A stretch of DNA of 64,000 bases from Lachnospiraceae bacterium (GTDB lineage: Bacteria > Bacillota > Clostridia > Lachnospirales > Lachnospiraceae), in NCBI GenBank assembly GCA_017558145.1, contig JAFYWF010000116.1:4415-68414 (forward strand), given 5' to 3'. This document shows, in pieces, positions 24,844 to 27,183 of the stretch (its first letter is position 1; each line of letters opens with the position of its first letter). The position numbers and the translations under genes are program-made. The notes under the pieces were generated by a model. It was not told where the DNA came from and did no database searches. It saw only the letters and a list, made by a program, of their open reading frames with translations.

Positions 24844-27183
24844 TTATCTTCTACTAATCTTCTCCTTAATCTTCGTAGAACTGGTACTCTGGGTATATGG
24901 GAAAAATACCAAATCTGCCCCCTGACTCTGTAAATATCTTTTCTTTGCTAACCAATCCGGATCATTCTCATAATCACTGCCGGAAAACTGTACATCAAAA
25001 TGATATTTGCTATATGCAGTCTCCGTATCTCCATAGTTTGGGCCTATTTTTACTGCTTCATCCACATAACGACAGGAACGCACAATCTCAATTCTTTCTT
25101 CAAAAGGTATATATGGATTTGTCTTCTTGTTTTTACGAACACTCTCATCAGATACCACACCCACAATTAGATAATCACACTGCTCTTTTGCCCGCTTGAA
25201 CATATTCAAATGACCTACATGAAACAGATCAAATACTCCTGCAATATATCCCACATGATACTTCTTCGGTGCAGCTACCTCTTCTCCTGAAACACTGACC
25301 AGTACTTTGGGTATCACTTTCTTCCTTGGATACTTTATACTCCAATCATATACTCCGTAATGCTTTACCCCTAATTCCCTCAGCTGTCTCATGACACCTA
25401 CATAATTCTTAATACAGATAATTACCTTATAACTATCCGCCTCCATATTTTTCAAAATATCCGGACTGAAAATAGGAATATCATACATCCGGGTTCCCCA
25501 CTTCTCCGAACTGTTATCCAGAATCCCCTCTACTTCCACTTCTCCTTCAAACTGTTCCAGGAAACGCATAGTAAATCTTCCGGAACCGAATAAATACAGC
25601 TTTTTATCTTCCAAGTTTTCTAAAATATCCTTAAAAATTGCTTGATATTCACTCTCTGAATAATTCATTCTCTGTCGGTTGGAATGAACAATACCGTCAT
25701 TACGTTTATAGGCTACATAAAAACTACCTAACTCTTTCTTGTTACGTAAGACATCTATAAATTTTGTAGAGTACCTTTTCCATAATTGTTCATATTCACC
25801 TAGACCATACCTATCCATCAAAGTCCTTCTCGACAATGCGGATTCCAGACCTGCATCTCCACCATAAATCATATTTATAGAACGATATAGAATCACATTA
25901 GCAGGAAGTTCTTCATAATAAAACTCCTGATCATAGAAAAGAAACCTATCCTCTGTTTTAAAACAGTTTAAGGAAACAAGATCTATGTATCCTCTCTTTA
26001 AAACAGGACCAAAATACTCTGCCTTTTCTGAAAAAGCAACTTTTTTCCATTGCTCCCTGTTTGGATCATCCGGTTTTCTTCTTTCCCAATCCGGATCCAT
26101 CTTGTCCCAATCTACTTCATCATAGGAAATAATATCTGAAGAATGAAAAATAATATCTCTGAAAGCATCTAACTCCTTCAAAAAAACTTCCGTATCTTCT
26201 TTTATTATCCGTCGGAAATAATTCGTTACAATTTCACCCTTTATATACGGCATTATAAACATATCTTGTTCTATATGACCTTCTACTACAGCCACACCAT
26301 GAGCTTTCAAATCCTCATTGTGTTCTACAAGTTTTTTCAGTCGCTCTTTTCCTTCTTCATATAACGCTTTCTTTATTACAGTATCTTTTCCTGTAATAAT
26401 AGTTGCCAAAGCAAACTCTTTTCCTCTATCTATAGAGAGAGTAACATGTTTTACATCCATAAACTCATTATTTAAGGAATATTCTATAAAATAAGAATTA
26501 GCCATAATATGAAACAAACCGTTTTGTACAAGAGTATTATACAATTTCTCTTCTTCCAGAAAAATAGTATCCGGTGTCCTATAGCCTGGAAAAAATCTAA
26601 CTTCTAACTCCTCTTCCGGTAAATAATCTTCCGCATAAATTAATTGCGGCATAGATAGGTTTGGTAATACAGAATAAAATTTTCTGCTGCTAAATCCGGC
26701 TTTGTCCAAAATATTCTCTATTTCTGCTTTGGAATACGCTCTCCCTTTTAACTGATCATAATCTGCTTTGTTAATTTTATAATAATTTTCTATACCATCA
26801 AAATTACGATTAGTAAAAGCATCCCTATCACCACAGAAATAACGGATTCCCAGACGATTATCCATTCCAAGAAGTAATTTCCCATCACTTGCCAAATGTC
26901 TTCTTAGAATAGCCAGCAACTTCTCCGGCTCCTTACAATATTCTAAACAACCTAACAAAATAATATATTCATATCTCTCTAACTTATTCTCTAAGTCAAA
27001 AACTCTTTCTATATCCATACAAGAAACAGCAAGACCTGTTTCCTGAAGCCCTTCTAGAAGAGCTTCATAATTCATTTCTTGCTGTAAACTGTGTGTAATA
27101 AGAAGTGCTGTGGCTCCTTTATTAAATTTGTACCATTTGATGATTCCCTTGGGAAGTTCGCGGATTAGTTGTTGTGTATGCAT
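24844..27183 (-). CDS. Four-domain fusion: class I SAM methyltransferase - kinase-like (APH/ChoK-like) - Rossmann-like FGxG...DN..WG module - HxGH cytidylyltransferase
   Basis: N-terminus [16 protein letters not shown] (MTase family common in clostridial glycan loci). Middle [10 protein letters not shown]...FYDQEF (HxDxxxxN / D-x-E-like kinase core). Then [11 protein letters not shown]...[11 protein letters not shown]...IPIFSP. C-terminus [36 protein letters not shown] (TagD-type CTase). Confidence 0.65.
   Translation of the reverse strand: [779 protein letters not shown]

Follow-up and report, generated by a model that had tools for sequence, protein, structure and literature searches.

A fused protein-kinase-like and cytidylyltransferase protein of a Lachnospiraceae flagellin-glycan island that probably links a small alcohol to CDP

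We analyzed a 64,000-nucleotide stretch of Lachnospiraceae DNA (referred to as the window), which encodes a four-domain protein of 779 residues. This protein belongs to a flagellin-glycan island of the gut Lachnospiraceae type, and it probably phosphorylates a small alcohol and links it to CDP for attachment to the flagellin glycan. In the specific form of this proposal, to which we give an even chance, the protein, as a bifunctional kinase/cytidylyltransferase, produces CDP-X, with the logic of the Kennedy pathway on one polypeptide and with no methylation by its own methyltransferase-like domain. The central protein-kinase-like domain would phosphorylate a small hydroxyl compound (X-OH), as its fold and catalytic residues suggest. 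The TagD-type domain would join X-phosphate and CTP to form CDP-X, and the fusion itself points to coupling with the kinase. An 857-residue TagF-like protein, LicD, or both would then transfer the phospho-X group to a flagellin-glycan sugar; we infer this transfer from gene order, from fusions in relatives and from the Fta precedent in Clostridioides difficile. The gene and its domains are as follows.

24844..27183, minus strand: whole gene of the four-domain 779-residue protein, with an ATG start and its stop codon at 24844-24846 (open reading frame list and translation)
26476..27183, minus strand: residues 1-236, class I methyltransferase-like fold that lacks SAM motif I, a probable pseudo-methyltransferase (Pfam, Foldseek, homolog alignment)
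25669..26466, minus strand: residues 240-505, predicted protein-kinase-like (APH/choline-kinase-type) phosphotransferase domain (AlphaFold, Foldseek, catalytic residues)
25318..25641, minus strand: residues 515-622, small Rossmann-like module, Pfam PF22674, C2185-like_N (PF22674 precomputed on homologs)
24847..25263, minus strand: residues 641-779, HxGH cytidylyltransferase of the TagD/ECT/CCT family (Pfam, PDB profile, Foldseek)

A ribosome-binding site (GAGAGG) is located 8 nt upstream of the ATG, and the stop codon of the upstream GT2 gene lies 20 nt before it. More than 1183 homologs are present in the database, and the best 120 of these are nearly all full length (about 780 residues, 51-93% identity). 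Therefore, the gene is real and not a chance open reading frame. Members of the family are present in at least 554 species genomes, nearly all of them Lachnospiraceae. Its existing label is glycerol-3-phosphate cytidylyltransferase only, given by automatic annotation (e.g., to homolog P0102), and in hundreds of genomes this label is likely to be wrong or incomplete. The initial annotation had named the four folds in this order, and the open reading frame list, Pfam, Foldseek and AlphaFold agree with it; the motif strings that it cited are all present (residues 103-118 and 399-408, FYDQEF at 416-421, and residues 649-662). It had also recognized no described enzyme with this architecture. We found no description of the fusion in the literature searched, and searches on Lachnospiraceae flagellin glycosylation and on the architecture returned nothing relevant. 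The architecture is, however, far from rare, and WbdD (methyltransferase then kinase) and HldE (kinase then HxGH nucleotidyltransferase) are partial precedents for it.

The central domain is recognized by structure. Residues 240-505 had no match in Pfam or NCBIfam for the query, three close homologs and 50 distant relatives, and hmmsearch of the PDB with a 35-sequence profile gave nothing over this region at E ≤ 10. When the full-length model was searched with Foldseek, cytidylyltransferase and methyltransferase matches filled the best 50 and no kinase appeared; because the search was swamped in this way, the central domain was re-predicted alone. The AF2 model of residues 238-510 has a pLDDT of 88 and a pTM of 0.84. 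All of its 50 best Foldseek matches in the PDB are protein-kinase-like (PKL) kinases (probability 0.99-1.00), including MphE, APH(2''), Rio1/2, MTR kinase and pneumococcal LicA (4r7b, rank 13). The TM-scores (0.3-0.49) and E-values (4e-5 to 1e-3) are modest, so the fold assignment rests on the consistency of the matches and on the motifs. The model is bilobal and has the beta3 Lys, the catalytic loop and the metal-binding Asp of PKL kinases, and the sequence-family models APH and Choline_kinase do not match. Putative catalytic residues are K271, D401, N406 and D418-Q419-E420. The catalytic loop reads Y399-I-D401-LVSL-N406, with Tyr or Phe in the family at the position of the Brenner-motif His, and the metal-binding motif is D418-Q-E420. 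We scored conservation in 149 representatives with mutual identity of at most 50%, including proteins without the cytidylyltransferase. K271 was found in all 144 non-gap sequences, D401 (as Asp or Glu) in 145, N406 in 143, D418 in 145, and Q419 and E420 in 147 each. The earlier view of the central region as a kinase fold is thus supported by the model, since the structure search gives only PKL kinases and the catalytic residues are intact.

The C-terminal domain is a TagD-type HxGH cytidylyltransferase, as had been proposed; Pfam, the HxGH, RYVDE and STTKIK motifs and the KxK lysine all support this. Pfam CTP_transf_like (PF01467) matches it with an E-value of 4e-19 (69.6 bits, against a 21-bit cut-off), profile matches in the PDB include ECT (2e-29), TagD (4e-18) and CCT (4e-12), and Foldseek aligned it with TagD 1coz at a TM-score of 0.83, normalized to the target. 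ECT was rejected as the closest relative because it has two tandem CT domains, so that its match is not meaningful; per domain, TagD scores 63.7 bits and the ECT domains 50.7 and 46.1 bits. H655-V-G-H658 is invariant among homologs, and HVGH, KNKK (containing the KxK lysine), RYVDE and STSSTKIK align onto the TagD motifs. RYVDEAV is present, and the Arg of the TagD/CCT motif RTEGISTT(KIK) is replaced by an invariant Tyr763. In CCT, this Arg is important for the binding of CTP, and to judge from the sequence, nucleotide handling may differ here. The NCBIfam TagD equivalog for glycerol-3-phosphate cytidylyltransferase (TIGR01518) scored 76.1 bits against a cut-off of 165.4, and RfaE domain II scored 74 against 181 (TIGR02199 match at 9e-21). 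Because these scores are similar, the nucleotide may be either CTP or ATP. The HMM of the Rossmann module in front of this domain also matches four other island enzymes (open reading frames at 27204, 28652, 32952 and 44459), and a PDB sequence search with the module gave only noise-level matches. We speculate that island enzymes probably share it for docking or for binding a ligand.

The N-terminal domain had been described as a class I SAM methyltransferase, and of this description the fold has stood. Foldseek matched it to class I methyltransferases (1vlm, E 3e-7; 3mgg; 4kri; 4htf), which have a Rossmann-like seven-stranded fold, although the AF2 model has only six strands and lacks one beta2/beta3 strand. 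The Pfam Methyltransf_23 score is 23.2 bits, under the 27-bit cut-off, and the match spans only profile positions 70-159, that is, beta4 onward. The glycine-rich SAM motif I (E/DxGxGxG after beta1) was found in none of 120 close homologs, whose alignment is hypervariable in this region, with indels. Conservation is 0.41 over residues 25-70, the lowest of the structured part, and 0.6-0.89 outside it; the highest value, 0.89, is at residues 109-135 and marks a hyperconserved post-beta5 loop (residues 108-134). In the cytidylyltransferase-fused clade, the beta2/beta3 segment (12-24 residues in motif-bearing relatives) is deleted. This segment carries the SAM-ribose acidic residue at the end of beta2 (e.g., ...hvtsVEKS in motif-bearing relatives), and no conserved acidic residue was found at residues 52-60 of the homolog alignment.

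Motif I is retained in a distant sub-family, as LLEIGGGMGALT, together with the beta2/beta3 insert, and there the fusion is usually to LicD and not to the cytidylyltransferase. Two of 27 motif I-bearing relatives are fused to a cytidylyltransferase, compared with 70 of 96 motif-less ones (Fisher p = 6e-10); the former tend to have LicD or no partner, and the latter the cytidylyltransferase. The GxGxG motif does occur together with a cytidylyltransferase in the distant representatives P0235 and P0257. These sequence patterns suggest that the N-terminal domain is probably a pseudo-enzyme in the cytidylyltransferase-fused clade, with canonical SAM binding unlikely, although loss of motif I is no proof. 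This protein therefore probably leaves CDP-X unmethylated. The earlier proposal that the fused domain methylates the head group is accordingly not supported, as motif I and the beta2/beta3 segment are absent throughout the fused clade. The domain clearly has some role, because the most conserved stretch of the protein lies within it, and the conserved loop probably still binds the common substrate or a partner.

The gene is surrounded by the following island genes.

27204..28532, minus strand: GT2 glycosyltransferase with a C-terminal C2185-like Rossmann module, immediately upstream (Pfam, module HMM)
23260..24773, minus strand: inserted toxin-antitoxin-like cassette (Pfam, NCBIfam, promoter and palindrome)
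20637..23210, minus strand: 857-residue protein, N-terminal half weakly TagF-like and C-terminal half beta-propeller-like (Pfam matches of homologs, motifs)
19672..20550, minus strand: LicD-family phosphotransferase (Pfam LicD, E 3e-44)
43517..44449, minus strand: AP_endonuc_2, a xylose-isomerase-like TIM barrel (Pfam)
52635..53495, minus strand: flagellin gene inside the island (Pfam Flagellin_N 6e-42, Flagellin_C 2e-27)

LicD and a TagF-like protein do lie downstream beyond the toxin-antitoxin insert, as the initial annotation had it, with only a weak likeness to TagF. The 857-residue protein of the window has no Pfam match. Among nine homologs, three match Glyphos_transf at about 1e-3 and six match a Vgb_lyase-type propeller, and the motifs WRPHP and ISDGYIGEE..TS are invariant. 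It is a candidate CDP-X:glycan phosphotransferase. LicD, which has an 89% identical ortholog at the same position in a related locus (L084), is a second candidate user of the CDP-activated product. The cassette encodes a 123-residue protein (24332-24703) and a HigA-type HTH/M78-peptidase protein (23260-24339), and it has a near-consensus promoter and a 16-bp palindrome at 24716-24773. It is present in 93%-identical relatives and missing from the equivalent junction of L084; hence, it behaves as an insertion. The flagellin gene, located about 25 kb from the 779-residue gene, presumably encodes the protein substrate of island glycosylation. The TIM-barrel protein may help to make the head-group alcohol; in a PDB sequence search this conserved partner matched only the uncharacterized MJ1311 (9e-4). 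None of the 40 island open reading frames has a TM-like segment, and 10 of 761 in homologous operon runs are polytopic.

Neighborhoods were counted in 80 loci of the family with 10-kb flanks. The most conserved neighbor is the GT2 homolog, upstream on the same strand in 64 loci, and an AP_endonuc_2 TIM-barrel homolog is found in 61, as a rule co-directional and 0.2-1.5 kb downstream. In 23 loci a TagF-like gene occurs within 10 kb, and the homolog of the 857-residue protein is directly adjacent in eight. LicD is within 10 kb in 10 loci and flagellin in only two, so these two links are either lineage-specific or hidden by the flank limit. The order in L084 is a copy of the 779-residue homolog, an 866-residue TagF-like protein and LicD, with a 10-nt junction. 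Among 50 distant relatives of the methyltransferase-like and kinase module, LicD is on 15 and a cytidylyltransferase on 14; GT2 is another fusion partner of the module. The fusions to LicD or cytidylyltransferase tie the module, by the Rosetta stone argument, to CDP-alcohol transfer. L084 also has a 563-residue and 159-residue gene pair, which we considered as a natural split of the fused protein and rejected. The two form a single reading frame that an in-frame TAG breaks at the position of Q600, and the first 36 residues are missing; the pair probably reflects a sequencing error or a duplicate that is decaying.

The closest characterized system that we found is FtaABCD (CD0241-CD0244), the post-glycosylation pathway of C. 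difficile Type A flagellin (PMC10714395; bioRxiv 10.64898/2026.02.12.704994), and the comparison made with this flagellin at the outset was apt. Experiments have demonstrated CDP-threonine, CDP-N-methylthreonine, the methyltransferase FtaC and the TagF-like transferase FtaD (bioRxiv 10.64898/2026.02.12.704994); CDP-Thr is formed, FtaC acts on it, and FtaD then acts on GlcNAc-FliC (PMC10714395; bioRxiv 10.64898/2026.02.12.704994). Both are flagellin-linked Bacillota pathways with a CDP-activated phospho-head-group and a soluble TagF-like transferase that forms, or here would form, a phosphodiester on a flagellin sugar. In contrast to the one fused protein, Fta consists of four separate proteins, among which a phosphoserine-phosphatase-like phosphotransferase, not a kinase-fold enzyme, is assigned the phosphoryl step. 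FtaB is modeled on a GDP-mannose-pyrophosphorylase-type nucleotidyltransferase, whereas the domain described here is TagD-type HxGH, and the SAM methyltransferase FtaC is active, whereas the methyltransferase-like domain of the fused protein lacks motif I.

The LicA/LicC/LicD logic of S. pneumoniae and Haemophilus, which had been invoked for this locus, applies in part. A kinase, a cytidylyltransferase and LicD transfer to a glycan follow one another there, LicD is downstream in the window, and LicA is a protein-kinase-like choline kinase found among the structural matches of the central domain, with no similarity to it detected at the sequence level. LicC, however, has a GlmU/NTP_transferase-type fold, whereas the cytidylyltransferase here is of the PF01467 TagD/CCT type, and LicD neighbors only the minority of loci given above. 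With TagD/ECT/CCT, the domain shares the fold, HxGH, the KxK lysine, RYVDE and the STTKIK motif; it differs in lying behind three other domains and in the Tyr for Arg. HldE/RfaE is a bifunctional heptose kinase/adenylyltransferase that makes a nucleotide-activated glycan precursor, with the kinase N-terminal to the HxGH nucleotidyltransferase. This resembles the fusion described here and involves the same Pfam family, but the HldE kinase has a ribokinase fold, its two steps are not consecutive, and our protein scores far under the HldE cut-offs.

Three other explanations were weighed against the bifunctional kinase/cytidylyltransferase. In one, which we regard as quite improbable, all catalytic domains are active and a methylated CDP head group is made, e.g., from ethanolamine through P-ethanolamine and P-choline to CDP-choline, or as an N-methyl amino-alcohol or amino acid. 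The class I fold is kept, the Foldseek matches include the phosphoethanolamine N-methyltransferases 4kri and 4ine, the post-beta5 loop is extremely conserved, and C. difficile methylates CDP-threonine (bioRxiv 10.64898/2026.02.12.704994); moreover, P0235 and P0257 indicate that such chemistry may exist elsewhere in the family. The lack of motif I in all 120 close homologs, the hypervariable beta1-beta2 region without the beta2/beta3 segment and the sub-threshold Pfam match from beta4 onward speak against it, and the island has separate intact methyltransferases (32952-33893 and 58375-60126). In another, the annotated activity, on glycerol-3-phosphate or a similar substrate, would be the only real one and the N-terminal 620 residues a non-catalytic scaffold. 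This agrees with the cytidylyltransferase being the only domain that passes curated family thresholds and with the degenerate methyltransferase-like domain. We consider it highly improbable, since the kinase Lys/Asp/Asn/Asp set is near-invariant in the 149 representatives even without a cytidylyltransferase, a pattern unlike that of a scaffold.

The remaining explanation takes E. coli WbdD, the O9a O-antigen chain terminator, as its model; WbdD modifies a glycan with a class I methyltransferase domain followed by a protein-kinase-like domain (PMC3482155). The module would act on the flagellin glycan itself, by phosphorylating one of its sugar hydroxyls; the cytidylyltransferase would separately make an ordinary donor, e.g., CDP-glycerol from glycerol-3-phosphate, and the fusion would mean co-localization and not a two-step pathway. 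We find this unlikely, although the order and sizes of the domains fit WbdD (methyltransferase 1-210, kinase 211-459; PMC3482155), the module is also fused to the glycan-acting LicD and GT2, TagD is the best single-domain PDB match of the cytidylyltransferase, and the family carries the automatic label of a glycerol-3-phosphate cytidylyltransferase. WbdD itself gave no PDB sequence match at E ≤ 10 and is outside the top 50 structural matches of the kinase domain, so it was rejected as a true homolog and its architecture is analogous only. WbdD is a SAM-binding enzyme that phosphorylates the glycan and methylates this phosphate, whereas the 779-residue protein has no motif I, and WbdD ends in a coiled coil in place of the Rossmann module and cytidylyltransferase. 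The nearest structural neighbors of the kinase domain are instead small-molecule kinases, and the TIGR01518 cut-off is missed widely. A polyol-phosphate donor could also be supplied by the island set at 36741-41472 (FGGY kinase, Fe-ADH, IspD-like cytidylyltransferase, TagF).

Returning to the bifunctional kinase/cytidylyltransferase, a bolder form of it is possible, although we hold it as doubtful. The product would be a CDP-linked metabolite not yet described (a CDP-polyol, CDP-hydroxy-acid or CDP-amino-acid), its alcohol would come from the xylose-isomerase-like TIM barrels, and many gut Lachnospiraceae would carry it on their flagellins as a phosphodiester post-glycosylation modification. 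The methyltransferase-like domain would be re-purposed through its invariant loop as a new substrate-binding or catalytic site working with the kinase.

Among gut antigens, the flagellins of Lachnospiraceae are dominant, and they are also ligands of TLR5; to our knowledge, little is known about their decoration. If the kinase-cytidylyltransferase feeds TagF-like or LicD transferases, this would be a widespread way of placing phosphodiester-linked head groups on flagellin glycans, and an extension of the CDP-threonine chemistry recently discovered in C. difficile. The protein would also add a family of protein-kinase-like small-molecule kinases beyond the present Pfam and NCBIfam models, and a clear case of a methyltransferase domain that decays to a pseudo-enzyme in the cytidylyltransferase-fusion branch and stays intact in the LicD-fusion branch.

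The 779-codon open reading frame on the minus strand at 24844..27183 (hereafter the target) is a real gene with a conserved architecture. It starts with ATG, has a ribosome-binding site (GAGAGG) 8 nt upstream, and is separated by only 20 nt from the stop codon of the upstream GT2 gene. A search across 5.8 billion proteins revealed more than 1183 relatives; the best 120 of these share 51-93% identity with the target, and nearly all are full-length proteins of ~780 aa. Scanning one genome per GTDB species showed that relatives are encoded in at least 554 genomes, nearly all from Lachnospiraceae, e.g., Roseburia, Agathobacter, Lachnospira, Lacrimispora, Hungatella, Enterocloster and Acetatifactor. 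Carriers in culture include Lacrimispora sp. HJ-01, Acetatifactor aquisgranensis DSM 110981 and Agathobacter sp. Among the homologs, one is named glycerol-3-phosphate cytidylyltransferase in the databases and another cytidyltransferase-like protein; no description of the domain architecture was found in the literature searched. The four sequence strings quoted in the initial annotation were all found in the target at the expected places.

The central domain (residues ~240-505) gave no sequence-level match in Pfam, NCBIfam or PDB. When 1.84 billion representatives were searched exhaustively with HMMER, it turned up in 566 clusters, nearly always at positions ~235-500 and preceded by the same N-terminal domain. 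The top 149 representatives comprise 74 with the order N-terminal domain, kinase-like domain, Rossmann module and cytidylyltransferase, 31 that end with the Rossmann module, 28 that end with the kinase-like domain, and minor variants. Because a full-length Foldseek search was swamped by the other domains, residues 238-510 were modelled alone (pLDDT 88, pTM 0.84). All of the 50 best PDB matches of this model were protein-kinase-like phosphotransferases, although with modest TM-scores (0.3-0.49). They include macrolide phosphotransferases (7w1a, 4e-5), APH(2''), Rio1/Rio2, 5-methylthioribose kinase, the pneumococcal choline kinase LicA (rank 13) and Bud32/PRPK. The canonical kinase catalytic set is present and near-invariant in the 149 representatives, which share at most 50% mutual identity. 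K271 is kept in all 144 non-gap representatives; in the Y399-x-D401-xxxx-N406 motif, position 401 is D or E in 145 and N406 is found in 143; D418 is present in 145, Q419 and E420 each in 147, R253 in 141 and R434 in 145. The central domain is predicted from its fold and catalytic residues to be an active kinase-fold phosphotransferase, from a family without a model in current domain libraries. Among 50 distant relatives of the module formed by the N-terminal and kinase-like domains, the fusion partner is LicD in 15, a cytidylyltransferase in 14 and GT2 in four.

The C-terminal part of the target contains two further domains:

Residues ~515-622 (25318-25641): small Rossmann-like module, Pfam C2185-like_N (PF22674), as precomputed on homologs
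Residues ~641-779: cytidylyltransferase domain, Pfam CTP_transf_like, E 4e-19, 69.6 bits against a cut-off of 21 bits

In the cytidylyltransferase domain, a profile of 35 homologs, compared with the PDB, matched human ethanolamine-phosphate cytidylyltransferase, which has two tandem domains (2e-29), as well as Bacillus subtilis TagD (4e-18), Staphylococcus aureus TagD, CCT and the cytidylyltransferase domain of Fom1. In the full-length AF2 model, Foldseek superposed the domain on TagD (1coz) with a target-normalised TM-score of 0.83. In the alignment, H655-x-G-H658, K686 (in KNKK), RYVDEAV and STSSTKIK of the target matched the TagD motifs. The Arg position of the TagD motif RTEGISTT corresponds to Tyr763 in the target, and this Tyr is invariant across the aligned homologs. 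With 76 bits for glycerol-3-phosphate cytidylyltransferase and 74 bits for RfaE domain II, the target stayed below the respective equivalog cut-offs of 165 and 181 bits. An HMM built from the Rossmann-like module, which is about 100 residues long, matched four more enzymes of the island in which the target lies:

27204-28532: GT2, module at the C-terminus
28652-30124: GT1, module at the N-terminus
32952-33893: methyltransferase, module at the N-terminus
44459-46495: unusual 678-aa fusion of GT8 and an AP_endonuc_2 TIM barrel, module at the C-terminus

The module is also attached to glycosyltransferases in related loci, and it looks like a common docking or ligand-binding adapter for the five island enzymes.

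Residues 1-236 adopt a class I methyltransferase-like fold (Foldseek; best matches include 1vlm at 3e-7). Pfam Methyltransf_23 matched this domain with 23.2 bits, under the 27-bit cut-off, and through the second half of the profile only. In the alignment of target homologs, the stretch where SAM motif I is expected is hypervariable with indels. Among the structured parts of the target, conservation is lowest in this stretch and the segment next to it (residues 25-70), where the mean top-residue frequency is 0.41 compared to 0.6-0.89 elsewhere. None of 120 close homologs carries a glycine-rich motif at this site. When the N-terminal domains of distant representatives were aligned, motif I was canonical or near-canonical in a second, distant sub-family (LLEIGGGMGALT, VLEVGAGFGALT), which has an extra 12-24 residues with beta2 and an acidic residue that are deleted in the target's clade. 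Presence of motif I is strongly anti-correlated with fusion to the cytidylyltransferase (Fisher p = 6e-10): the 27 motif-bearing representatives include two with a cytidylyltransferase and 13 with LicD, whereas the 96 motif-less ones include 70 and four, respectively. The N-terminal domain is therefore best read as a pseudo-methyltransferase in the target's clade. The initial annotation of a four-domain fusion largely stands in its reading frame, quoted strings and folds, but not in an intact methyltransferase. The best-conserved segment of the whole target is also in this domain, in the loop after beta5 (residues 108-134, 26782-26862; 0.89 over residues 109-135). This loop is conserved in the SAM-competent sub-family too, and it has low confidence in the AlphaFold model (pLDDT <50). 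Two distant family members, P0235 (802 aa) and P0257 (711 aa), have a GxGxG motif I together with a cytidylyltransferase domain. This suggests that a fully competent methyltransferase-kinase-cytidylyltransferase enzyme, as originally imagined for the target, may exist in other lineages.

The glycan-biosynthesis island spans ~14.8 to 62.5 kb of the window. It encodes glycosyltransferases (GT2, GT2-TPR, GT1, GT8 and DUF3880/Glyco_trans_1_2), a trio of GFO/IDH/MocA oxidoreductase, DegT aminotransferase and hexapeptide acetyltransferase, and the following features:

36741-41472: FGGY kinase, Fe-ADH, IspD-like nucleotidyltransferase and TagF (Glyphos_transf)
41666-43462: unusual 598-aa fusion of a GFO/IDH/MocA oxidoreductase and a glycerophosphodiester phosphodiesterase (GDPD)
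47832-50177: second LicD, adjoining a cytidylyltransferase-GFO/IDH/MocA oxidoreductase fusion
52635-53495: flagellin

The sets at 36741-41472 and 47832-50177 are two further candidate routes to CDP-alcohols, and this suggests that the flagellin glycan is rich in phosphodiester-linked groups. None of the 40 island ORFs examined has TM-like segments, and genes for a flippase, a polymerase or an initiating phosphoglycosyl transferase are missing from the island. Such a gene content is consistent with glycosylation of a protein in the cytoplasm, for which flagellin is the obvious candidate acceptor. Mobile-element genes border the island and also break it up (660-5111, 18514-19521 and 53797-54717): a Mob_Pre relaxase, a MazF-like toxin and a phage-type integrase lie at its left end, and two Rpn/YhgA-like PD-(D/E)XK transposase-like genes lie within it.

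Downstream of the target are, in order, a 123-aa ORF, a HigA-type HTH/M78 protein, an 857-aa protein, LicD, an Rpn-family transposase-like gene and a DUF3880 glycosyltransferase. The 857-aa protein itself has no Pfam match; among nine homologs, three match Glyphos_transf weakly and six match a beta-propeller family. It contains the invariant motifs WRPHP and ISDGYIGEE..TS, which we take to be TagF-family signatures. The first two genes form a toxin-antitoxin-like cassette (23260-24773) between the target and this TagF-like gene. The cassette has its own near-consensus promoter on the minus strand (TTGACA-17-TACAAT, 24773-24745), overlapped by a perfect 16-bp palindrome (24716-24750). Its 123-aa ORF matches no family, and the product of its second gene joins a HigA-type HTH to an M78 (IrrE-like) peptidase domain. 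The 93%-identical relatives also have the cassette, at 97-99.7% identity, but it is absent from the equivalent junction of L084, the locus of an 81%-identical relative. L084 carries one fused copy of the target and a tandem second copy (14274-16510), followed after 10 nt by an 866-aa TagF-like gene, LicD (89% identical to that of the window) and a DUF3880 glycosyltransferase. From this contiguity, the cassette in the window is read as an insertion that split a formerly contiguous target/TagF-like/LicD operon. The second copy is missing the first 36 residues, is broken by a TAG in frame where Q600 would be, and is called as 563 aa and 159 aa; this reflects either decay of a duplicate or an error in sequencing. 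The same island in L084 apparently has another CDP-head-group cassette (1359-3696), in which LicD is grouped with a free-standing cytidylyltransferase of 144 aa and a PdxA-family dehydrogenase; genes for a methyltransferase, a radical-SAM protein and a class V aminotransferase come next.

Of the 80 best loci, 64 have a GT2 gene like 27204-28532 upstream in the same orientation, and 61 have AP_endonuc_2 (xylose-isomerase-like) TIM barrels, often two genes, directly downstream. TagF-like genes occur in 23 loci, LicD in 10, a homolog of the 857-aa protein directly adjoining the target homolog in eight, and flagellin within 10 kb in two. Only 10 of 761 ORFs in same-strand runs around target homologs encode polytopic membrane proteins. 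A typical family locus, L002 (7718-9151 and 14560-16126), has APS kinase and ATP sulfurylase for PAPS synthesis in the operon, along with a polysaccharide pyruvyl transferase and a protein of the sulfatase family, a hint that glycans are sulfated and/or pyruvylated in some lineages.

Taken with these folds, motifs, conservation and gene linkage, the best-supported reading is that the target is a kinase/cytidylyltransferase that would convert a small alcohol X into CDP-X, from which TagF-like and/or LicD enzymes would add phospho-X to the flagellin glycan. The kinase and cytidylyltransferase steps would be consecutive, and the methyltransferase-like domain would be catalytically dead. HldE is a similar fusion of a kinase followed by an HxGH nucleotidyltransferase. 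The LicA/LicC/LicD pathway has the same logic, but LicC has a different fold from the cytidylyltransferase of the target. The chief alternative is modelled on WbdD: the kinase would act directly on the glycan, with the cytidylyltransferase supplying an ordinary donor. WbdD shares the methyltransferase-then-kinase order (PMC3482155), although homology is not detectable. The closest experimentally defined system that we found is FtaABCD of Clostridioides difficile, which makes CDP-threonine; FtaC methylates it while it is CDP-activated, and the TagF-like FtaD transfers the head group to GlcNAc-FliC (PMC10714395; bioRxiv 10.64898/2026.02.12.704994). Its logic is the same as that proposed for the target, but the folds of the first two enzymes differ and the methyltransferase of the target is degenerate. 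The logic of kinase, cytidylyltransferase and transferase in the initial annotation is retained under the CDP-X reading, whereas methylation by the target itself is not supported, as motif I is absent. The TIM barrels co-conserved with the target, and SDRs in some relatives, lead us to speculate that X is a sugar-derived polyol or hydroxy compound.

In summary, the target represents an abundant, uncharacterised and probably under-annotated family in hundreds of gut Lachnospiraceae genomes. It would be of greater interest if its product is a new CDP-metabolite destined for flagellin, and likewise if the SAM-less domain has gained a new function.
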